64,000 nt of DNA from positions 5,615 to 69,614 of IMG/VR virus record IMGVR_UViG_3300026311_000016; one strand, 5' to 3'. Origin of the DNA: a virus (lineage: Duplodnaviria > Caudoviricetes). The notes under the pieces are model-generated. The model ran no database searches and was not told the origin of the DNA. It saw nothing but the letters and a program-made list of their open reading frames with translations. This document shows positions 1,585-35,551 of this stretch, piece after piece. The stretch's first letter is position 1; every line of letters begins with the position of its first letter. Made by a program: the position numbers and the translations under genes.

Positions 1585-4500
1585 CTACCTCCCCACACCC
1601 CATATCTCAACTAAACCTACAGCGAATTTATATAGTTGTTCTGGTCCACCTATAGGTAAGAACGTTTTTGCTAATTCATATACAGCCACTACAGCCAAAT
1701 TTGCATCTTGATTATCAATAGCTCTAATTAGCTTCCTTGTTGCACCACCTATCCGCTCTGTTAGAGCACCAAAGTTACCTCCACCAACATTACCATACCC
1801 ACCAAAGATACCGCCCAATATGATACCTGGTGCACCAAATAAAGTAGACACATTAGTTGCTAAACTCCTAGCCCAGTATTCTGCTGTCATCCATTCATCA
1901 TCTTCAAACCCTCCACCAACAGCTTTTATACCTACTTTCAGTAACTCAACTGCAACAGATTGAGATAAGATAATACCTAAAGCGTTAAGTCCTGCTTTAG
2001 TTCTATCTTTAACTGATAATTCACCGTCACCTAATTTATACATTTGTTTTCTTAACATCATACCAGACTTTAGAGACTGCGATAAAAATCGTGTTATAAG
2101 TCTACCTAATGTTGTTCTTGCCAGTGGAGGACTATCAAATGGATCAAATGTCTGCTGTGTCATCTGTGTGATGTACTCAGTTCTTCTTGCTACATAATTA
2201 TCAAACTCAGTAGTTCCTCTTTTATATCCTTTAGCAACAGCTTCAACTTCGAGTAATTTCCATATACCCATGATACTTGATGTGTCCATATCCTGTATCC
2301 AGGACATCGCACCACGAGATGACAGAATAAACTTTAGATGATCTCTTTTGAGTTTTTTTCCACCAAGAAACATCTGTGCTGCTGTGGCTCTATTTTGAGT
2401 ACCTCTCATAACAACTTCCATTGAGTTATTAAAACGCTCTTTGAGATATGGTGATAACTTCTCAATGTGTTTTTTAAAACTCATCTTCTCTTTAATTGTA
2501 CTTTTACTAAACCAGTTCCTTACATCAAGAGACGCTTTAGCAAACTCTCTCCATCCGATATCCATCTCAGGGAAGTAAAGAACGGTTGCTATAGGCTGTG
2601 ATAAAGATACTGATGGTTTATATCCAAGAACTCCTATAGTGAACACATTACTGATAATTTTAAGAGCTTGTTCAGATGAATCTTTAACCTTTACAGTCAT
2701 CATGTCTTTAACATCATCATACATAGCTCTAAATTCAGCCTCATATCCATTCTTTATCATCATAGTTCTGAATTTATCATCATTGATAATATTCCAGACC
2801 TTGTTAGTAACCATCACCATATCCATATACTGATTGAATAGTGAGTAAGTTCTAGCTATAGCTATGAAAGGATCTTCGAGTATTATAGGCTGTTTACTAT
2901 CCTGACGTGCTTTAGTAATTGATGGTAGACCTTTAAAGAACGTTTGTCTGAAATCTTCTGGTGTATTAACAACTTGTTTATCAGATGCTAAATAGTCTTT
3001 ATGTACCCATATAGGAAAGTAGTTAGGTTCGTTAAATATTTTCTCGCCAATATCAGCTAAAGATACTTCGTTGCCTATCTCTGCTTGTCTTTCAAAATGA
3101 GACTTGATGACTTTTACAAGTTTTTTCTGTCTGGTATTTAATCTCTTACCGAGTGATAAAATATCATTATCAGTTAATACAAACGGTTCTGTATTTCCAC
3201 CATCGGTTTCAATTAAAAATCCTCCGTTGACAAGGTGATTATACCCAGGTTCGCTTTGTGCTAATAGATAAAGTGAAACTTCTCTTGCTTCACTCATCTC
3301 TACTTCACCATTATCGAACCGAACTTTACGTTTTCTTTTCTTTTTATCACCAGCGAAGAGTCTCTCAACGATACCGACAGATAACTGATCTGACATTATT
3401 CTAATGTCTTTGTATGATAAACCAAACTTTTTGAAGTCTTCCTTGAGTCCATCATCAAGCTTATTTTTGTTCTCATATACTTTAAGCCTATTTTTTGCCA
3501 TAGGATTAGTGATATACTTCTGAAACATCCCATCATCCCTATACCCATCCATCTCTTCAGCTTTATACTTTAAGTTGATATTAGTTAAACTCCTGGGCGA
3601 ACCTACCCATCTCCAAAAAGGATTCTCACTGTAGTTCCAGAAGTTAGCTGATTTACTTTGTTTTGGGGTGCGTTTCTTAGCTGATACCTGTTTACCAATG
3701 TCTTCTACTGCTATTTCTGTCTCAGTTTTTTTCTCTTTTTTGATACTTTTTACTCTATCATTTACAGCTTTAAATTCTTCTTTAATAGCAATGAGTGTAC
3801 TGTTGATCCTCTGAGCATCAAACATTCCATCTGCTGTAGTAAGATCTTTTTTATACTGTGGAAAAGTCTTCTTACCTAAATCTGTAAGAGTATAATATTC
3901 TTCTCCGTCTTTAGTTATAATCTCAGCAAATTTCTGTTCTAAAAGAGAATTATATCTTGCTCCTGGTTTAGTTGAAATTAAATTGCCAGCTTTATCTTTT
4001 CTTTTTGGTTTTAATACTTCACCACGATCATTCAATCTTTTCATTGTAGTATAATCTACAAATTTCTTATAATCTGCTTCTAATGATTCTAATTCAGTTG
4101 CTATTTTCTTATAATCAGGATCAGACTTTTTAAGTAGGTTCTTATGTTTCATCTTAAAAGCTCGAACTCTGACAAAAGCCTGATGAGCTTTCTTATAATC
4201 TATAGCTTCATCAACAAGTTCCATTGCTTTCTTGTAATAAACATCATCAACAGCTTCTACTTTTTCAATAAGAGCAAATATCTGTCTACGATAAGAGTCA
4301 GCACCAACACCATACAAATGCTTATTAACGAAGTCATAAAATCTTATCTTGACGTTTCTATCGGTTAATCTAAGTTTGATCTTATCAGCTACATAAGTCT
4401 CAGCTTTTTGTTTGGCTGTTAACTGTTTAAATGGCTTATGTTTCTTCTTAGGTTTATTTTCAACTTTTGTAGCAGCAACAGATCTACGTGTCTGTCCAGT

Positions 4501-7500
4501 ATATCCACTATCATCAATCTTACCGAATTGTTGAATGATAGACTTAGCCATAGCATCTATCTCTGTTTTTGACGCCTTTTGTTTAAACCACTTCTTAAAT
4601 ATTCTATCAGATAACCCTCTGATGAAGTTATATACTTTCTTCAGTACACTTTCATCAGCTTTATATTTAGCTTCGTTGAAGTTACCATCTTTATCATAAT
4701 ATTCTTTAGCTACGTCTTCAACTCGTTTAGCCAACCATTCATCAAATAAAACTGTAGGATCTTTCTTTATCTGTTTAGCGTATGTATTAGCTATCTTTTT
4801 AGTGAAATCACTGTCAATATCTTTTTGAAATAGATCTCTTGCGTATTGAGCCAGGTCTTTATCAATAGAACTAACTACCTTAGATGCTCCATAGTGACCA
4901 AACAGCTCATGTACTACTGTAGGAACTATCTGGGATTTAGGTATATCAGGGTTGATCATTATAGTCGATCTACCATCTTTACCATTGAATATAGCACCGT
5001 AATCTCTATTTGACAGCTCAATAGTACCAAACTTCTTACCTACGACTATACGGGGTATCTTAGTGCTTCCCTTAAATACTTTGAGGGATTCCTTGACTAC
5101 CTTGCGTACATCAGGTGTAATAGAATTACTGTCGGTTTTAGTAACTGGTTCAGATGTTCTCATCATCCTGACACTGACATCATCTCTGTCAAATATAACA
5201 TCGATGTCTTTAGCGTCAACACTTTGAACGTCTTCACCCTTTAACTCAGCAAACTTCTTAGGGTTCTTTATCAAGAGAGTCTTTCTGCCTGGTAGTTTAT
5301 TAATCTCATCGGTGAGGTATTTGGTTAGTTTCTCGCCTTTAAACCCTTTAGATACGCCTTCTTTATATATTCTATTCTGTTCTTTTTTAGATACATCACC
5401 AGTCACCACTTCAAATATTTTGTCGAAGTTGAAGTCTTTATTACCAGCAAATTCTTTCTTAATCTGCTGTTCTAACTCAGGTGTGTACTCCATCCCATTA
5501 GTGATAGACTCTACAAACTGTCTACGTTTCTGTTTCTTCGTTGTGGAACCAGCACCTTGAGCTTCCAATTCAGTTCCAAGTGCTGCCAGGTCTGCTATCT
5601 CTGCCATTTGCTGACGAGTTTTACCTTTAATAGCATCCTTGAGAGTAACTTCTTCACCGTTAAGTTCTATCGAAAACTCAGGATCATTAGCGATAATTCT
5701 AATTAACCGCTTAAACTTAGGACCGAGTTTAGCTGCTTCAGACTTATTCTGATAAGGAACGCTAAAGTCTATGTTACTAACGATCTCCTTAGCAACCGAT
5801 AGTTTATCTTCTGGTATATCGAGTCTACTAATAAACTTCTTCTGTTCTTTGGATAATACAGGCTCAGTTTTTGCTACTTCATTATCTATGGTAGCACTCG
5901 TGGTTTTACTGGCAAGAGGAGTAGAAGCAGGGGTTTCCTGCTCTACTTCATTTACTGGAACAACCTCTTGAGGTTGAGTCTGTTCCGTAGCTGTTTCTAC
6001 GCTTGGTAGATCAGCATTAGGGCTGGTTTCTGTAGTAGGGATAGGTGTAGTAGCCTCCTGTGATGATTGAGGCTCTACGGCAGGTTCCTGTTCGTTTAAC
6101 AGGGTTTCGGTTTCTTGACTTTCTTCTTCATCTATAACCTCTTCTGTTGTGTTATCAATCTGATCCATCTCTGATAAAAGTCTGGATCTTGTTTCTTCGT
6201 CTATTTTCGGATCTGTAGTAACAGCAGATTTTAATAGATTTCTACCTTCTTTATCATATTCATATCTCGAAAGTAGATCCTCCTCTGTCATATCGAAACT
6301 CTTGATGTAAGGAGATTCGTCTACTTCGCCCTGCTCATTTATTAACTGTTGAGCCGGTTCTGTCATAGTACTGACAGGGTTACCCTGTTCATCAACAGCT
6401 TGTAGTTCCTGCTGTGATTGTTCGGTGTTCTGTTGTTTGGGTTGTATTGCCTTATTAACAGCACTTCCAGCACCACGAGTTAATATCTCGATACCAAACC
6501 CACTCCAGAAGTCTCTACCATAATCCTGTTTAGGTAACTGATCTTCTGGTATATTGGCTTCTTTAGCAGCTTTACCAAGTGTATACTGCATTATTCTACT
6601 CTGTAATGCTTCCTGTGCTCCTCCTACAGTACCAGCACCTAACTCATTTATTACCTTTCCAACGATTTTGTTTTTTACAGACTCAGCCAAATTCTTAACT
6701 ACAGGAACCTTTTTACCGAACATCAGTAAATTATCAACATATTCACTCATACCAGATGGTATAGCATATTGCATTGCGTACTTCTGAGCTATCTCATCTG
6801 GAATACCTAATTTCTTGGCTTCTTCTAAATAACTATCGGTTTCTCTTGCTATAAGTAATGTTGCTGATCCTACATTACCAGCTAATTGTGTCAGTATCTG
6901 CGGTAGATTAGTCGTTGTCATAGTAGCCCAAGTATTGATCACCTGTGGTATATTTTTAGAAATAAGAGGATCACTGGCTACCTTATTTACTTCCTTCTCC
7001 CATATTTCAGGAGTAAAGTTTAATTTTTCTTTTATTTTTTCAACTGTAGTATCATATGACTTATTATCTGTATTTTTTATATCTATACCAGTTACATCTT
7101 TTATCAGTTTGGCTTTATTCTGAGCATCTATTTTATTAATAGAAGCAAGACCACCAAATACTCCACTGACTATATCTTTTAATCCAACCATAGCTCCTTT
7201 GAAAAAGGTAGTCCAATCACCTTCAGGTATTTGTTCCTGTGATCGAGTAACTACTTGTTCGGTGGGTTGTTCGGTTACTTGTTCAATGGGAGTAATTAGA
7301 CCGTACAGATCTTCTCGTTCTTTGATAAATCTATTCTTAACTGATTGTCTTGTCTCGATAGGACTACTCTTAAACCATCTATCAGTATCTAATTTTACAT
7401 CTATTACACTATCAATAAATGTTTTTTCATCCAATTCAGTTTTACCACTAAGAGCTTCATCGAATACTTTCTGTGCTAATTTAGCACCAAACTGGTTAGC

Positions 7501-25135: not shown

Positions 25136-27130
25136 CTACATTAGCAACCAACTTTTTTCATCTTTGACAGATTTAAACCCTGTAACACCTCTTTTATCAA
25201 CGTATGAACTCATTACCATAGGTAACTCCATATGTGTTATTTTTCTTTTTAAGAATGAGGTTATCAACGTTAGAGCGTAGCATAGTCCGTATTCTCTCTC
25301 CTGTTCAACACGTTTATTGTCTATCTTCCATCCAGATAGTTGCTCTATGGTCTTAACACACCCAGGATTAATGATAAGACGTTTCTGAAGTGTGAGAGTT
25401 ATCAAGGCATCTATTCCACTCATCTCATCGTAGTTATAATTCTCTGTCAGTCTAACACCATATTTACTATACTTGATATCCAAACCATCAGCATTCTTAC
25501 CAAACATCCTGTCGTTGCCTATGATCTTAGTTAATCCCTGATGCTGGATAATATTCATAGCTACACTAACAACTGAATCACCTGACAGGAACTCATCATA
25601 GATATACAACCGTCTACCATCCCATGCTGTGTATGCTACTGATATTGTCATATCCTTACCGTAGTATACAGCCCCGTATCGCTCTTCTCCTACGTAATGG
25701 AGGACTTTAACCGTTTGGGGATCTAATACATCCAGTTTCTTTAGAACTGTCTCTTCAGGTGCTTTTTGTGCGAAACAAAGGACTAATGCGTCTGCTCTGT
25801 CGGGGGAGGATTTGAATTCTTTCTTGTACTCGGATTTGGGTTCCAGCATTATCTTACCAGATGGGGATAAACGCCATCTTCTACTTGATAGTTCTTCTAT
25901 AAGATGCTGATCTTCAGGTAAACCTATTATATTAATTATAGACTTGACGTTACCCCACATAATCGAAGCCTCATTCTGATACTCATTATTACCAGCCCCA
26001 CCAAAGTTACACGGGACGACTTCTATATTATGAGATCTATCAGTTTTTAATATGTCAACTACACCGCCTCCGACACCACTATCATCAACTTTAATTCTGA
26101 TTGTACGTTCATAACCAGTTGCTTTACGTATCTCTTCAACAGTATCTAATGCTAATTGTGCCGTTTCGACAACACTACTTTTTGCGAGTGTTTTTGCAGG
26201 ATATACTTTGTAACCATGTCTCCAGTATAGAACCGTTAGATCATCACCAAAACGAGCTACGTCTAATCCTATCTCTATCTCACCGTTAGGTTGAACCTCT
26301 TCCCATCTATCTACTGCTGCGTGTACACTTGAAAGCTCGATAAAAGCGTCTGGAGAACCTTTTGGGAACTCACCCTTAACCATCACTCTAAACAAGTCAT
26401 GGTGACGGCCATACTTCTCTTCGTAGTATTGAATCTGATCTTTTTTAACAAATGGAGACTGTTCTGCATCAAATGTTAAAGTAACCCATCTCTTTTTTAA
26501 CTTTACATTATTGAACACATCATAAAAAGGACCGGATGTTCTTATGGGGTTTCCGATCATCACAAACTTGTTATTTCTACCAGTCAGTGTTGAGTCGAAC
26601 GCTTCAAATATCTCGTCTTTAACACCGCTGGCTTCATCCATGATAATTAACATATTATCAGCATGGGCGCCCTGAGCAGCATCAGCATCTTTCGCTGTCC
26701 TAAGTAAAGTGAAATGATTCTTAGGAGATTCCTTTAAATACATTGACTTTTCTGTTATCTCATATATCGGTTCAACTAATGATCGAGATAACCATAGAGA
26801 AAGTTCGGCCCAAAGAGCAGTTTTTAGGGTTCCGTAAGTGGGTGCTGTACAAAGAACCTTCGGATTTTCAAAACAGTTCATGAACCATAGGACTGCGTTC
26901 ACCACAAGGGCCGTCTTCCCTGGTCCTTTCCCCGACTTTATAGCAACACGATCGTTGTTTTGTATCGCTAACAAACCTTCTTTCTGTTGATCAGAAAGAA
27001 ACCACTTAGGATCGTTCTTGAATACAATATCCTCTGAATGTGCTATTATATTCTGTTGATAATAAGCAATTGATTCTACAGTAAATAAATTACTGTAGAA
27101 TATATTTTTTCGTTTTTTATTGTTATTCAT
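25136..27130 (-). CDS. terL: terminase large subunit with an extra C-terminal nuclease-like domain
   Basis: Walker A SGKGPGKT, Walker B IMDEASG, nuclease GLDVARFGDD and SPDRADAL, then about 200 extra aa. Confidence 0.92.
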   Translation of the reverse strand: MNNNKKRKNIFYSNLFTVESIAYYQQNIIAHSEDIVFKNDPKWFLSDQQKEGLLAIQNNDRVAIKSGKGPGKTALVVNAVLWFMNCFENPKVLCTAPTYGTLKTALWAELSLWLSRSLVEPIYEITEKSMYLKESPKNHFTLLRTAKDADAAQGAHADNMLIIMDEASGVKDEIFEAFDSTLTGRNNKFVMIGNPIRTSGPFYDVFNNVKLKKRWVTLTFDAEQSPFVKKDQIQYYEEKYGRHHDLFRVMVKGEFPKGSPDAFIELSSVHAAVDRWEEVQPNGEIEIGLDVARFGDDLTVLYWRHGYKVYPAKTLAKSSVVETAQLALDTVEEIRKATGYERTIRIKVDDSGVGGGVVDILKTDRSHNIEVVPCNFGGAGNNEYQNEASIMWGNVKSIINIIGLPEDQHLIEELSSRRWRLSPSGKIMLEPKSEYKKEFKSSPDRADALVLCFAQKAPEETVLKKLDVLDPQTVKVLHYVGEERYGAVYYGKDMTISVAYTAWDGRRLYIYDEFLSGDSVVSVAMNIIQHQGLTKIIGNDRMFGKNADGLDIKYSKYGVRLTENYNYDEMSGIDALITLTLQKRLIINPGCVKTIEQLSGWKIDNKRVEQEREYGLCYALTLITSFLKRKITHMELPMVMSSYVDKRGVTGFKSVKDEKSWLLM

Positions 27131-27556: not shown

Positions 27557-27826
27557 CTACTCCTTAACTAAACCTCTCTCTTTGAGATACTTATACATCT
27601 CAATACACACATCAATAGAAACATAAGTATATTGCCCACCGGAATCTATTTGGAACTTGTTAAAATCTTTATGTTCACCAAAACCAGTTTTAAGATCATC
27701 AATAAAGACTATTTCATACTTAGGACACATATCATTTTCATGCTTTAACTGATAGATTATATCATTTCCAAAACAGTCTTTCTCTCTCATGCTCTCCATC
27801 CTTCTACTTCTACTAAATAAGGACAC
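27557..27826 (-). CDS. hypothetical protein
   Basis: 89-aa ORF in operon. Confidence 0.45.
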   Translation of the reverse strand: MSLFSRSRRMESMREKDCFGNDIIYQLKHENDMCPKYEIVFIDDLKTGFGEHKDFNKFQIDSGGQYTYVSIDVCIEMYKYLKERGLVKE

Positions 27827-32047: not shown

Positions 32048-32413
32048 CTAATCATCATATTTAGTTAGGTTATCAAATGGACCGTATTCGATTCTGAGAT
32101 TCTCTTCTACCATAGAATCTTCTACCATCTGATCTAATTTTCTGTCAAACTCTATCTTCTCTAAACATTCTCTAGCTTTACGTCTTCTCCACATTTGGAA
32201 CTCTATTGTGTTGGCCATACGTTTAAACGCTTCAACTTTGTTACGATGCTGTTCTCTATAGTTTCTACATTCACCAACAGCACCGGACTCAGGATGTCTA
32301 CATCGTACACCAGATTCTGTTTTATTCTGATGTTGACCACCCTTACCACCCGATCTAAAGGTTTCAAACACACAGTCATCTCTAGTTACCGAGAATAGTA
32401 GTTGTTTACTCAT
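32048..32413 (-). CDS. stand-alone class I release-factor catalytic domain (ArfB/YaeJ/PrfH-like peptidyl-tRNA hydrolase)
   Basis: FRSGGKGGQHQNKTESGVRC.H..SG...C...R.QH.NK; no codon-recognition domain. Confidence 0.88.
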   Translation of the reverse strand: MSKQLLFSVTRDDCVFETFRSGGKGGQHQNKTESGVRCRHPESGAVGECRNYREQHRNKVEAFKRMANTIEFQMWRRRKARECLEKIEFDRKLDQMVEDSMVEENLRIEYGPFDNLTKYDD

Positions 32414-32924
32414 TCACCAGCTCCTCTGTCAGCTGTTCTTTAGCTTTGCTTACTTTGAATCTACCGCCAAGTCTGATGTTACGACCACCACAACCAGGAC
32501 ATACTTTATCCCTGATATCAAACTCAGTCTTACAATCCATACACTTGTTAGGAACCTCTTTGAATTGGTTCTTTCTTTCCATCTCTTCAAGCTCTATCTC
32601 ATAAAGATATTTACCGTTATGAACTATATTGTAGCAAGGTGAAAACATTTTGATATATTGAGCTTCTACTCTATTCAAATCCTTCCTCTTACATGATATG
32701 AATGTGTAACTAGTAAACCCTTTATCAAGGTGATCATATATTCTTCTAAGTCCATTTATCGTCTGACCTACGTATATTATCTTATCATACTTAAACAAAA
32801 AGTATATTCCAGCATTTCTTATTATTCTCTTCTTCCTGCTTAATAACTCTTCATAATTTAACAATTCGTCGGTTATTGGTTTTCTCTCTGATCTACGTCC
32901 TTTTCTGTGATTCTTCGCAGACAT
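32406..32924 (-). CDS. GIY-YIG nuclease-domain protein with a C-terminal zinc ribbon
   Basis: GIYFL...IYVGQT..G.RRI.DH, E..YI...P.YN; CMDC...CPGC. Confidence 0.75.
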   Translation of the reverse strand: MSAKNHRKGRRSERKPITDELLNYEELLSRKKRIIRNAGIYFLFKYDKIIYVGQTINGLRRIYDHLDKGFTSYTFISCKRKDLNRVEAQYIKMFSPCYNIVHNGKYLYEIELEEMERKNQFKEVPNKCMDCKTEFDIRDKVCPGCGGRNIRLGGRFKVSKAKEQLTEELVNE

Positions 32925-32969
32925 CCTGTACCCCTTCTCGAAATTGTTGTTTGTATTGTTGATATATCT

Positions 32970-32998
32970 AATATACGTTTTTATTTTATAGAAGTAAA
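32970..32998 (-). promoter_or_regulatory. sigma70-like promoter, TCTATA-spacer class
   Basis: TTTACT-tctataaaataaaaacg(17)-TATATT. Confidence 0.65.
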
Positions 32999-33144
32999 GG
33001 TAAATCTTAACACATTACTAAAATATATTGATAAAAAATTATTTTTCTATTTCAGGGTTTTGATGTCTGCTTGTCAGACTCAAAAAACCCCTACACCGGT
33101 GGGTCAACTGACAAAAAAAAATAAAATATTTTTTCCTGCACCTC

Positions 33145-33394
33145 TTTCTCTTCATTTTAAACCAAGATTATCTCACTCGGAACGTGTAGCCAGATCGGGG
33201 GAAACCTTCCATAGGAGTGCTGATTGAGAGAAAGACTGACAGACCTATGGGATCGACTCTACACGATTATCCTGTCTATACATGGGTATAAACTAACGAC
33301 CTGGTTTTCCAGCCGGAGAAGATGCTTAACTTGTAGCTGCAATACCTTATACTACGATACGGCTACGGGACTTTCACCTTATCTGCTTCTCAAT
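33145..33394 (-). ncRNA. candidate structured non-coding RNA (about 250 nt)
   Basis: own promoter; GC-richer than flanks; nested stems GAGAAG/CTTCTC, GTAGC/GCTAC, CTGG/CCAG, CAGGAT/ATCTTG, CGTGTAG/CTACACG, CCATAGG/CCTATGG; no credible ORF. Confidence 0.55.
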
Positions 33395-33400
33395 AATAAC

Positions 33401-33429
33401 AATATAACGAATAAAAGTATAGAAGTAAA
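33401..33429 (-). promoter_or_regulatory. sigma70-like promoter driving the candidate ncRNA
   Basis: TTTACT-tctatacttttattcgt(17)-TATATT. Confidence 0.65.
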
Positions 33430-33476
33430 GAAAAATCTTCTATTTTATAAATATTTCTTATTACTGCTAAATTAAT

Positions 33477-33505
33477 TTGACTTCTATAAAGTATTTAACT
33501 ATATT
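33477..33505 (+). promoter_or_regulatory. rightward sigma70-like promoter, back-to-back with 33401-33429
   Basis: TTGACT-tctataaagtatttaac(17)-TATATT. Confidence 0.7.
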
Positions 33506-33617
33506 AGTATAGAGGGGTAAGTAATTTATCTCGATTATGTTACGGGGGTAGTCTTATATACCCTTAGATGTTTAAATAATAAAATACATACCACCAACAC
33601 ACAAAATAGGAGAAATT

Positions 33618-33941
33618 ATGATTAAGTTGCCAGAGCAGTTCAAAAGAAAAGGTATGATGTATGATCTTGAAGCAAGGAATGAGTTTGTGGCGTTGTACAG
33701 AGTCACGTCTATAGAAGCTGACAGAGTAGTTGGATACGAAGTCTGGAAAATAAGAATTGCTAAAGAAAGTGAGATGTTTGGTAGAGTAATTGAAGAACAT
33801 GAGATTAGACCAACTGATGAGGACTTTGGTACATACGCATGGAGTTTCGACAGTTATGATACTGCTGTTGAATGTTATGAGAATAAATATTTTTACTATT
33901 ATTCTAAATCTATGAATGAAAAAACTATTACAACCTGCTAA
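33618..33941 (+). CDS. conserved-looking phage hypothetical protein, monocistronic
   Basis: 107 aa, RBS AGGAG, own promoter and downstream hairpin. Confidence 0.65.
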   Translation: MIKLPEQFKRKGMMYDLEARNEFVALYRVTSIEADRVVGYEVWKIRIAKESEMFGRVIEEHEIRPTDEDFGTYAWSFDSYDTAVECYENKYFYYYSKSMNEKTITTC

Positions 33942-33967
33942 TTATCTTGCTAAAACATATAACAGTG

Positions 33968-33992
33968 GGGAGGGTAAATTACCCTCTCATTT
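33968..33992 (+). terminator. possible terminator hairpin
   Basis: GGGAGGGT-aaatt-ACCCTCTC with a weak U tract. Confidence 0.4.
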
Positions 33993-34150
33993 CCTCAAAC
34001 ATATATCTCATCACCGTCAGATCTTTTAGCAGTATAGGATCATTGGTAGATGCTAAATAAGTATCTATAACATGGATACATGCTGACAGATCTCCCTGTA
34101 TAGAAGTCAGATCCTGGAATAACCTACTAAAAAATTCAATAGATAGCATA

Positions 34151-34180
34151 TTGACAACTCCTGTTAGTTAGTGGTAGGAT
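34151..34180 (+). promoter_or_regulatory. possible sigma70 promoter
   Basis: TTGACA-N18-TAGGAT. Confidence 0.4.
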
Positions 34181-34563
34181 TGGTCGGTAACATATAATCT
34201 GCTATAGTAACACACGATATGTTACTATATAAGAAGATATGTTATCATATTGATAAATATAGGTTTAGGAAGGTGAATTAAGGTAGTGGTTTATAGAAGT
34301 TGTCAGAAAAAATATGGGATATTTCTGACATAGAGTTGGTGTAAAGTGGTAGATGGTAAGAGGATATGTGTTGGAGGGTTGTATAGAAGGTGGTGATTTC
34401 TGGTGGGGATTTGTAAAGTAGGCCTCCCCCCTCGCGGCGCTCGATCGAACGTTCAAATTCACCATCGACCCAGGTCTTCCAATTCCAGCTTTTTCCGCTA
34501 TTAGAAGTCGTCGCAGTGAGACGTTAAACCACTAAAGTAAGCGTAGAGTGACACGATAGTCAC

Positions 34564-34821
34564 GATAGCCAGTTCTCAGATACTGGTAAACTATCCGGTT
34601 CATTGACAATCTTGTATGCCAGAATGGTCAGCACATTAAGTGAGCAATCACTTCCAGACCACAACTTGACAGTGAGCTTAGAGCTTGTAGCGGGTAGTCA
34701 AGGATAGGCTATTAATGACAAGCGATATCGTGTATAGTACGTTAACCTATACTTTGAGTCGTTTGGCGGTTAGCGATAAACCGCTTCTCTAATGCAACTG
34801 TAGTTAAATAACTACAATTGT
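34564..34821 (+). ncRNA. candidate structured RNA or long structured 5' leader of the early operon
   Basis: six consecutive stems including AAGTGA-GCAA-TCACTT (GNRA loop), CTTGAC/GTCAAG, GTATAG/CTATAC, GCGGTT/AACCGC, GCAACTGTAGTT/AACTACAATTGT. Confidence 0.5.
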
Positions 34822-34854
34822 CTAAAGTCAATAAATGCAGATAGGAGAGTAAAA

Positions 34855-35046
34855 ATGAAAACGAAAACAGCTATAGAGAAAATAGCAAAGGTGTTAGAGA
34901 AATCTCCCTATGCAAAGGGAGATAACATTAAGGGAGAGTTTGTTATTACCTCAGATAACAGCATTGAGTTTACACTTGGGTGCGGAACTTATCTTTTTGA
35001 TGAAATGGGTGATCTTCTTATGATGATCACCCCTAGAGAGTCTTAA
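34855..35046 (+). CDS. early hypothetical protein
   Basis: RBS AGGAG; first ORF of the early arm. Confidence 0.6.
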   Translation: MKTKTAIEKIAKVLEKSPYAKGDNIKGEFVITSDNSIEFTLGCGTYLFDEMGDLLMMITPRES

Positions 35047-35117
35047 TCCATTCTACATTAAGGTATCATTGATAAGTGAAATAATAAACAAATAATCAAA
35101 GGAGAAGGAGAGAGAAA

Positions 35118-35426
35118 ATGTGTTGTAATTTGTCGAAACAAAAGATAATCCAAATAGGGTTGACAGCATTGGTTGATGCTTGGCCAATGAAAACTTGGAA
35201 TGATTTGCCCAATGATGCACTATTGGAAATTGGACTTGCTGTAATTGAGTCCAATGAGGAGTGGGGAAAGCTAGTATATTTGTCGAGAAATGTTGACAAG
35301 ATGATAGATGAAAAACTGGAATATGACGAAAGTCTGTATTATACACGTAGCGGTAGAGGTTACGTGTATGATGATGGAGCTCACGCCCAGTATGGGGAAT
35401 TGAGCTCTATTATGACCGTGTCTTAA
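35118..35426 (+). CDS. early hypothetical protein
   Basis: 102 aa, RBS. Confidence 0.55.
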   Translation: MCCNLSKQKIIQIGLTALVDAWPMKTWNDLPNDALLEIGLAVIESNEEWGKLVYLSRNVDKMIDEKLEYDESLYYTRSGRGYVYDDGAHAQYGELSSIMTVS

Positions 35427-35452
35427 TCCTAAACATAAAATAGGAGTTAAGA

Positions 35453-35551
35453 ATGATAATATATCTTAACTGTCTATGTGACTATTGTCACATTGTAAAC
35501 AGAATTCATCAGTTTAATTTGATTGGTGAATATGTTTACGTAGGATACTAA
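35453..35551 (+). CDS. 32-aa micropeptide, copy 1 (not in track)
   Basis: MIIYLNCLCDYCHIVNRIHQFNLIGEYVYVGY; RBS TAGGAGT; paralog at 40110. Confidence 0.7.
   Translation: MIIYLNCLCDYCHIVNRIHQFNLIGEYVYVGY

Follow-up and report, generated by a model that had tools for sequence, protein, structure and literature searches.

6S RNA forms a long closed rod, and the large bubble at its centre mimics an open promoter. CsrB and RsmZ are sponge RNAs that show many GGA motifs in hairpin loops. sRNAs that are bounded by a terminator share a hallmark, a G+C-rich hairpin with a U-tract immediately 3' of it. The 6S transcript from lambda PR' (Q antitermination), put of HK022 and EAR of Bacillus belong to processive-antitermination systems. 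Phages also carry non-coding RNAs of unknown function, such as the species 1 and 2 (band C/D) RNAs of T4 and the sRNAs found in the transcriptomes of virulent phages. We know of no pRNA outside phi29-like phages. To our knowledge, the ncRNAs of virulent, uncultured phages are almost unexplored, and those that are known come mostly from a few model phages. A 2025 review lists 38 sRNAs of phages for which no function has been described (PMC12197685).

Here, we analyse a candidate non-coding RNA in the genome of a tailed phage, a gene-free stretch of ~260-345 nt behind a promoter of its own. The data point to a functional element on the minus strand that probably acts at the level of RNA. Four observations carry this reading: the conservation of its promoter (P1), the stable borders of the block in which it lies, the contrast in rate between the RNA part and a spacer of the same block, and variation in its hairpin and rod that is biased towards loops and compatible with wobble pairing. 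Judged by sequence searches, the candidate element occurs only within one narrow clade of tailed phages that are uncultured. Their genes encode a large terminase, a portal of the P22 type, an anaerobic ribonucleotide reductase and a DNA polymerase of family B.

Genome setting and promoters

The element was found in an IMG/VR record of 69.6 kb (~81% complete). We analysed 64,000 nt of this record, which we call the window. Minus-strand genes span positions 1-32924 and include a terminase (25136-27130), a P22-like portal, a major head protein and a 2130-aa protein. Plus-strand genes for replication and nucleotide metabolism follow from ~34855 (family B polymerase, primase-helicase, the anaerobic ribonucleotide reductase NrdD and a methylase). 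Together with strong SD sequences, NrdD gives a mere hint of a host that is Gram-positive and anaerobic. The candidate RNA sits in a 690-bp gap between the start of a minus-strand gene at 32924 and the start of a plus-strand gene at 33618. The preliminary description placed it in the hinge of the genome. This is not accurate, since a minus-strand gene of 56 aa (33979-34149) lies farther out than the block. The 56-aa ORF has a good RBS and is intact and 89-92% identical in three relatives (L129, L130 and L006). In these three it lies immediately before the block and points the same way. An inverted gene of 107 aa (33618-33941, plus strand) separates the two in the window, L131 and L136.

The block common to the window and its homologs spans 33437-32943. 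It consists of P1, the candidate RNA, an A/U hairpin with a U-run, two overlapping hairpins, an A/T-rich spacer, a second promoter (P2) and a leader, in this order. The features of the locus are:

33477..33505, plus strand: putative divergent promoter of the P1 class, TTGACT-17-TATATT (10 of 12), back to back with P1, which would drive the 107-aa gene
33401..33430, minus strand: predicted promoter P1 (promoter scan), -35 TTTACT at 33429-33424, -10 TATATT at 33406-33401, spacing 17
33297..33394, minus strand: predicted 5' domain, with GAGAAG/CTTCTC, GTAGC(CG)/(CA)GCTAC, the invariant AGGTGAAAGTCCCGTAGCC and a CTGG-AAAA-CCAG hairpin
33274..33293, minus strand: predicted small hairpin GUUUAUAC-NNNN-GUAUAGAC, 8 bp, -5.4 kcal/mol
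33183..33265, minus strand: predicted irregular rod of ~85 nt, with CGUGUAG/CUACACG, GAUC/GAUC and CCAUAGG/CCUAUGG, found in the MFE, centroid and RNAalifold folds
33136..33174, minus strand: purine-rich 3' tail UUUAAAAUGAAGAGAAAGAGGUGCAGG, almost invariant in 7 sequences
33112..33135, minus strand: all-A/U hairpin, then a U-run (U9), a possible weak 3' end that fails the terminator consensus
33054..33105, minus strand: two overlapping, mutually exclusive predicted hairpins, with energies from all homologs
33047..33005, minus strand: A/T-rich spacer of 43 nt, used as neutral yardstick
32925..32999, minus strand: predicted twin promoter P2 (TTTACTTCTATA...TATATT, 32998-32970), leader and RBS of the next gene, kept in all homologs
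32406..32924, minus strand: gene next to the block, whose product joins a GIY-YIG domain to a zinc ribbon of the CxxC...CxxC type (Pfam, alignment)

A leftward sigma-70-like promoter had been proposed at 33429-33401, and the promoter scan indeed finds TTTACT-17-TATATT there on the minus strand. The -35 element is followed by a conserved extension, TCTATA, and the predicted start is at ~33394. P1 is kept in 7/7 sequences as TT(T/G)ACT and (T/C)ATATT. It belongs to a recurring motif, TT(G/T)ACTTCTATA-N11-(C/T)ATATT(A), or the TTGACTTCTATA...TATATT class. Further minus-strand sites of this class lie at 32998, 31483, 25128 and 12678, each ahead of a block of late-direction genes, and plus-strand sites lie at 33477, 51971 and 61559. 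The divergent site (33477-33505) is found only where the 107-aa gene exists, that is, in the window, L131 and L136. P1 and P2 are joined by a direct repeat, D2 (22 nt, 91% identity). Promoters of this class can drive stable RNAs, since one of the P1 type lies 39 nt upstream of a tRNA-Thr gene in the relative L017.

Homologs, constraint and predicted fold

We found six homologs (L006, L129, L130, L131, L132 and L136), all of them metagenomic and all from close relatives, so that seven sequences including the window could be compared. L006 (L006/L009) came from an exact 17-mer scan of IMG/VR, and the other five were reached in metagenomes through neighbouring proteins used as anchors. Source samples are IMG 3300021603, 3300025638, 3300064362 and 3300076257, ENA ERZ27239170 and ERZ1645011, and SRA SRR36436666 and SRR27686860. 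The remaining four of the five 17-mer matches in IMG/VR fall inside long ORFs of unrelated contigs, which is about the number expected by chance, and were discarded. Searches of IMG/VR and bacterial genomes with a two-anchor pattern and two further conserved patterns returned L006 only, or nothing. A blastn search of the public phage genomes in INPHARED gave no match to the element. A covariance model of the hairpin and rod, run against 307 kb of related loci, matched only the window itself. The hinge regions of more distant relatives show no similarity to the element. L124 and L017 have no such unit between the last hinge promoter and the first late-direction gene. Hence, the element is accessory and not part of the core genome.

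The common block is 88.7-95.7% identical among the seven sequences. Its left border lies ~10-25 nt upstream of the -35 element and stays in place in all four types of upstream context. The seven sequences fall into no more than two haplotype groups: the window, L131, L132 and L136 on one side and L129, L130 and L006 on the other.

The preliminary description called the stretch richer in GC than its surroundings and free of a credible ORF, and both statements hold. GC is 0.40-0.43 over 33100-33399 and 0.24-0.33 in the flanks, and the minus strand has no ORF of at least 30 aa within 33156-33563. The stretch of the candidate RNA is ORF-free from 33394 to ~33136 (minus strand). Substitutions among the homologs have no three-base periodicity. 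Every frame is shifted by indels: 5 nt close to the 5' end, 1 nt in the rod loop, 1 nt close to the 3' end, and changes of run length in the A/U stretch. Coding is thus excluded. A decayed gene was sought by six-frame tblastn against all fetched loci, with no match.

For the same locus to express micropeptides is hardly credible. They would come from a 4-codon ORF after GAGAAG (GTG-AAA-GTC-CCG) or from a 38-aa ORF (33155-33039). The GTG is preceded by an SD-like GAGAAG or GAGGAG, but the distance between the two differs between haplotypes (8 vs 3 nt). The 38-aa ORF is open in the window, but only 10 codons of it are left in L129, L130 and L006, and run-length indels shift its frame.

To compare rates, we used the Jukes-Cantor distance K from the window to L129, L006 and L132, with the 43-nt spacer as a yardstick that is short, A/T-rich and harder to align:

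RNA, 33394-33136: L129 0.075, L006 0.070, L132 0.012
Hairpin and rod: L129 0.060, L006 0.051, L132 0.017
Purine-rich tail: L129 0.027, L006 0.027, L132 0
A/T-rich spacer, 33047-33005: L129 0.278, L006 0.313, L132 0.214

The rate of the RNA part is 4-18-fold lower than that of the spacer. Since the spacer lies in the same block and shares its recombination history, this gap indicates purifying selection on the RNA part. In the neighbouring genes dS ranges from 0.07 to 1.9 and is mostly above the K of the RNA.

Alternatively, the stretch may have no function of its own. It would then be a spacer, or what is left of a lost gene, between duplicated promoters, and its similarity would stem from recent mosaic exchange. 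The relatives are mosaic, all homologs are close, and many segments, several of them coding, are likewise 93-96% identical. Furthermore, the GC of the stretch resembles that of coding DNA, its folding energy equals that of shuffled sequences, and it shows no covariation. However, mosaic exchange does not account for a 4-18-fold difference from a spacer of the same block, and hence of the same age. The six-frame search found no protein similarity, and substitutions are non-random relative to the rod. We therefore regard a functionless stretch as quite improbable.

The fold itself had been described as two domains, a 5' domain and a long irregular rod. All of the stems named are where they were said to be: GAGAAG (33391-86) with CTTCTC (33321-16), CGTGTAG/CTACACG, GATC/GATC and CCATAGG/CCTATGG. 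Most of them occur in the MFE or the centroid fold, but CAGGAT/ATCTTG is absent from the MFE. The rod is capped by a pyrimidine-rich terminal loop of 27 nt (33243-33217, UCUGUCAGUCUUUCUCUCAAUCAGCAC) that is nearly invariant.

Comparison with dinucleotide shuffles, one of the tests proposed for this RNA, gives a chance result: -57.6 vs -57.8 +/- 4.6 kcal/mol for the 250 nt of the minus strand (z = 0.05). The z-score is 0.18 for the plus strand and -0.98 for 365 nt that include the downstream hairpins. Local values are lower (-7.6 for the hairpin at 33293-33274, -2.1 for the rod and -3.45 for the GUCUG/CAGAC hairpin), for segments that were picked post hoc.

Compensatory changes, another of the proposed tests, are found at 0/70 of the pairs predicted by RNAalifold, in a comparison that has little power with two haplotype groups only. 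RNAalifold gives no double change and two one-sided changes that are compatible with pairing, a G-C to G-U change in CGUGUAG/CUACACG (L129, L130) and a G-U to A-U change in L132. Pair counts in the shuffle controls equal the observed values because 35/36 rod pairs never vary, in a set of two haplotype groups only.

More can be learned from where the variable sites fall. We took pairing probabilities from the window sequence alone, which avoids the circularity of alignment-based folding. Over the 250 nt of the minus strand, the mean pairing probability is 0.42 at variable sites vs 0.58 (p = 0.015). The signal comes wholly from the hairpin and rod (RNA positions 99-220). Here, the seven variable sites have a P(paired) of 0.24, compared to 0.61 at invariant sites (permutation p = 0.004), and only one of the seven lies in an MFE pair, which is the G-U change. 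L136 has one more change, in the rod loop. In the small hairpin 16/16 stem bases are invariant, and the 4-nt loop occurs as CCAU, CCAC and CUAA. In the 5' domain variable sites do not avoid predicted pairs (p = 0.23), and its structure is thus unsupported. This domain also has a higher K (0.116 vs L129 and L006) and a 5-nt indel at its 5' end.

Two changes bear on the strand. The A-to-G change in GAGAAG turns an A-U pair into G-U on the minus strand. Both this change and C-to-U in CUACACG leave a G-U pair on the minus strand but would give C-A on the plus strand, which favours the former. Taken together, the variation consistently favours a hairpin-and-rod domain that folds on the minus strand, but it does not amount to proof by covariation.

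If the locus instead acted at the level of DNA, as a cluster of regulator binding sites or an origin-like region, any RNA would be incidental. The octamer CTTCTATA is present in 17 copies (4.7 +/- 1.9 expected), seven of them within 32987-34389. An A/T-rich run adjoins the conserved core, and proteins could bind the DNA of the invariant tail and 27-nt loop. The plus-strand fold shows a similar, though weaker, avoidance of stems by variable sites (p = 0.03). But the copies of CTTCTATA are located in promoters, outside the conserved core, and 33136-33394 has no iterons or repeats. Two wobble-compatible changes and a hairpin that varies in its loop only are what RNA structure predicts, and not DNA binding. 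We consider a DNA-level element improbable.

The reading as an RNA leads to the rod loop and the tail. These could pair over UCUUUCUC/GAGAAAGA (tail segment GAAGAGAAAGAGG), with a duplex energy of -18.3 kcal/mol vs -11.6 +/- 3.0 for shuffled tails (p = 0.025). RNAalifold pairs the tail with GCAxCUUCU and not with the rod loop. The duplex energy hints at a loop-tail pseudoknot, or at other ways of pairing between two purine-rich and two pyrimidine-rich stretches.

Downstream end and neighbouring gene

Three hairpins follow the tail. The A/U hairpin has two sequence versions, AAAAAAUA/UAUUUUUU and AAAAUU/AAUUUU, both of which fold (-2 to -3.6 kcal/mol). A weak hairpin, GACCC/GGGUU with a U-run (33105-33082), has -4.3 to -6.3 kcal/mol in all homologs. 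A strong one, GGGGUUUU..GUCUG-loop-CAGAC..AAAACCC (33092-33054), has -16.1 to -18.4 kcal/mol in all homologs and no adjoining U-tract. The latter two compete for GGGG(U)n, and indels in their loops and U-runs are tolerated. The weak hairpin with its T6 tract had been suggested as the terminator. It does not qualify: it has three G-C pairs, it fails the terminator scan, and its U-run is down to 3-4 in homologs. A scan of 32500-35500 for canonical terminators found 0 sites. The candidate could thus be either a free RNA of ~280-345 nt or a long leader that runs into the next gene.

The next gene in the window encodes the GIY-YIG protein, and a partnership between RNA and nuclease had been suggested. 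Co-occurrence contradicts this. The GIY-YIG domain follows the block in 2/7 genomes only (the window and L131), so a partnership with the nuclease is not supported. In L132, L136, L129, L130 and L006 the gene encodes a zinc ribbon alone, of 54-107 aa (61 aa in L132). The constant neighbour of the block is thus a small zinc-ribbon gene.

This arrangement raises the possibility of a cis-acting leader. Transcripts from P1 would run through the hairpins into the zinc-ribbon and late-direction genes, and the leader would gate polymerase or ribosome, by attenuation, by antitermination of the put/EAR or Q type, or by masking of the RBS by CUUCUCC or CUUUCUCUC. P2 would then supply unregulated basal expression. 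The layout fits in several respects: the RNA and the next gene are not separated by a canonical terminator, the block always includes P2, leader and RBS, and the zinc-ribbon gene is always next. Two mutually exclusive hairpins with GGGG(U)n in common, and purine- and pyrimidine-rich segments with alternative pairings, are also in line with a leader. Moreover, the conserved TCTATA in the promoter spacer sits at the position bound by lambda Q at PR'.

However, a twin promoter directly before the gene makes a leader of 470 nt unnecessary. The downstream RBS varies by haplotype (GAGAAGGGG, AAGAAGAGG or AAAGGAG), whereas the RNA is constant. Among the proteins scanned there is no Q-like protein, nor was an antiterminator gene identified. 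Finally, in the more distant relative L013 the corresponding stretch ends in a terminator-like structure before its own P2. We consider a leader unlikely, but less so than an element without function or one that acts as DNA.

The unit in L013 deserves a description of its own. The TerL of this relative is 56% identical to that of the window. It has a promoter of the P1 class at 5806 and a second promoter at 6239, followed by genes. Between the promoters lie ~340 nt that are ORF-free and fold well beyond chance (z = -3.35), with a long hairpin and a U-rich tail at the end. In sequence, this stretch bears no relation to the window's candidate RNA. By layout, with twin promoters around a non-coding stretch and a terminator-like end, the unit supports the reading as a non-coding transcription unit.

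Possible roles and known RNA systems

That the stretch is an independently transcribed RNA was the main proposal of the preliminary description, and it stands in part. The promoter, purifying selection and stem-avoiding variation speak for it; a folding energy at the level of shuffles, the lack of a terminator and the lack of compensatory changes speak against it. We give a transcribed non-coding RNA that acts through its invariant loop and tail slightly less than an even chance. On the sequence evidence, a novel phage ncRNA or leader is plausible.

We infer transcription of the candidate RNA, its 3' end, its action in trans and any target. P1 would start a minus-strand RNA at ~33394, which would comprise, in this order, a poorly defined 5' domain, the small hairpin, the irregular rod of ~85 nt and the purine-rich tail. 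It would end between the U-run of the A/U hairpin (~33112) and the strong hairpin (~33054), which gives a length of ~280-345 nt. P2 would then start the mRNA of the zinc-ribbon gene and the late-direction genes. The RNA would be made alongside the late-direction genes and act via its invariant single-stranded loop and tail. Loop or tail may bind a partner, either a protein or a purine-rich, SD-like mRNA, or the two may form a loop-tail pseudoknot.

A more specific version is a long shot: a structured RNA of a new family and the zinc-ribbon protein would form a ribonucleoprotein, with the loop-tail pseudoknot, that controls late transcription or translation, and the RNA of L013 would be an analogous one in the same slot.

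A target search, in which the RNA was duplex-folded with 121 translation-start regions, shows no signal: the best energy is -36.1, compared to -36.6 +/- 2.3 for shuffled queries. The rod loop and codons 2-5 of a small gene that starts at 27790 share the longest exact complement, a 13-mer, of which ~0.5 would arise by chance. The site is conserved wherever this gene exists, and L006 has the loop but not the gene. We reject the 27790 gene as evidence for a target on both grounds, chance and L006, and keep it as a lead only.

What makes the candidate worth following is the combination of a conserved promoter, clear borders, measurable purifying selection and a small zinc-ribbon gene next to it, where the late-direction genes begin, together with a second, unrelated RNA-like unit at the equivalent position in a more distant relative. 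If it is transcribed, it adds an RNA family and might uncover a step at which this phage group regulates late gene expression. Otherwise, the locus is a control region conserved as DNA. Either outcome is at present of specialist and not of general significance.

Rfam 15 has no match at the gathering level in the whole window. A search of 32950-33560 with E up to 10 gives three matches at chance level, none of them over the element. Thus the cmscan proposed as a check leaves the element without a match even at E = 10. The L006 homolog matches nothing at E up to 0.1, and the other homologs and relatives yield no family for the element. We also considered a hammerhead or other small ribozyme, an RNase P-like RNA (GGUGAAAGUCC resembles CR-I) and a cobalamin-riboswitch-like RNA, and dropped all three for want of Rfam support.

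Two known RNAs had been named as possible parallels. The candidate resembles 6S RNA in overall size and in a rod helix broken by internal loops. But its unpaired region is a terminal loop of 27 nt, and no bubble lies between two long helices. With this closure of the rod, and without an Rfam match, the 6S-like reading is not supported. Nor is a protein sponge, given only three GGA triplets in 260 nt. These lie in CAGGAUA, AUGGAAGG and GCAGGAAAA, none of them in a predicted hairpin loop.

The pRNA of phi29 is likewise a structured phage-encoded RNA of comparable size with conserved loops, from a phage with a family B polymerase. Unlike pRNA, the candidate has no Rfam match. Furthermore, the large terminase of its phage is complete and the portal is of the P22 type, so an RNA bridge is not needed.

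The antitermination systems (lambda PR', put and EAR) are similar in layout. There, too, a promoter is followed by a structured non-coding transcript of ~200-300 nt that heads a long late or structural block, and lambda PR' shares a conserved element in the promoter spacer. The candidate differs in that it has no recognisable terminator, in that a second full promoter lies just downstream, and in that its promoter class is multicopy.

By sequence comparison, the element falls into no described family; phage ncRNAs that have their own promoters and no assigned function are already known (PMC12197685). The candidate differs from these in that they were detected as transcripts, whereas it is predicted only and has neither sequence nor Rfam kinship with them. 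It is like them in having its own promoter, in being ORF-free and a few hundred nt long, in being restricted to a clade, and in its place between gene modules.

Late-direction genes next to the candidate RNA

Three minus-strand genes matter on the late-direction side of the block, which holds the candidate ncRNA with its promoters, hairpins and leader.

32406-32924, minus: GIY-YIG and zinc-ribbon fusion gene (alignment A9, the zinc-ribbon proteins encoded next to the block)
32048-32413, minus: 121-aa RF-1 domain protein (Pfam E = 2e-18)
27774-27790, minus: start of a small gene (at 27790) with a 13-nt complement of the rod loop

The small CxxC...CxxC zinc-ribbon protein carries an N-terminal GIY-YIG fusion in the window and in the close relative L131. 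In five relatives a homologous zinc ribbon stands alone, with 54-107 aa. This looks like either the gain of a GIY-YIG nuclease domain by a resident zinc-ribbon gene or its loss from that gene.

Counting downstream from the block, the second gene encodes the RF-1 domain protein, an ArfB/ICT1-like peptidyl-tRNA hydrolase that L132 has as well. tRNA genes are absent from the window, and under code 11 its ORFs are intact.

The invariant loop of the candidate RNA's rod (CAGUCUUUCUCUC) is exactly complementary, over 13 nt, to codons 2-5 of the small gene, whose ATG overlaps the stop of a 183-aa gene. The complement is kept in L003, L129 and L130. It is a lead only: about 0.5 such matches are expected by chance, and L006 lacks the small gene.

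The hinge and the stretch beyond it

The hinge is the switch from minus-strand late-direction genes to plus-strand replication and early genes. The following features lie beyond the block.

33618-33941, plus: 107-aa gene, restricted to the window, L131 and L136
33979-34149, minus: 56-aa ORF with AGGAG 8 nt 5' of its ATG
34151-34180, plus: strong promoter-like site
34188-34244: 25-nt inverted repeat

The 56-aa ORF, with the hairpin GAGGGTAAATTACCCTC after it, is uninterrupted in L129, L130 and L006 (89-92% identity). This ORF shows that late-direction genes reach past the supposed hinge. Therefore, the plus-strand 107-aa gene is an inverted insert.

The last three features lie within a GC-richer stretch of about 900 bp (33942-34854, reaching 0.495), which has no convincing plus-strand ORF and no Rfam match below E = 1. 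Its conservation in relatives is partial (75-96%).

The octamer CTTCTATA occurs 17 times genome-wide, compared to 4.7 expected. Seven copies, six of them minus-strand, fall within the 1.4-kb region 32987-34389. In TTGACTTCTATA promoters the octamer makes up the conserved stretch that extends the -35 element, and it may be a site for a phage transcription factor.

Features of two more distant relatives

L017 5606-5797, plus: TTGACTTCTATA...TATAAT promoter, directly followed by a tRNA-Thr and a second tRNA-like gene
L013 4484-4551, minus: type-P5 twister ribozyme (45.2 bits, gathering score 37.6)
L013 5806-6300, plus: unit with a layout like that of the block

The L017 hinge (2112-4260) comprises about 2.1 kb without called genes. 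In L013, whose TerL is 56% identical, the twister falls in non-coding DNA, on the side of the hinge where the early genes lie; the counterpart region in the window, 33942-34854, has no Rfam hit.

The L013 unit runs from a promoter through about 340 nt without an ORF to a terminator-like hairpin and a twin promoter. After the twin promoter, at 6300, comes a Cys-rich ORF (about 60 aa), which none of the gene callers reported. The unit's sequence is unrelated to the window's candidate RNA, and its folding is significant (z = -3.35).
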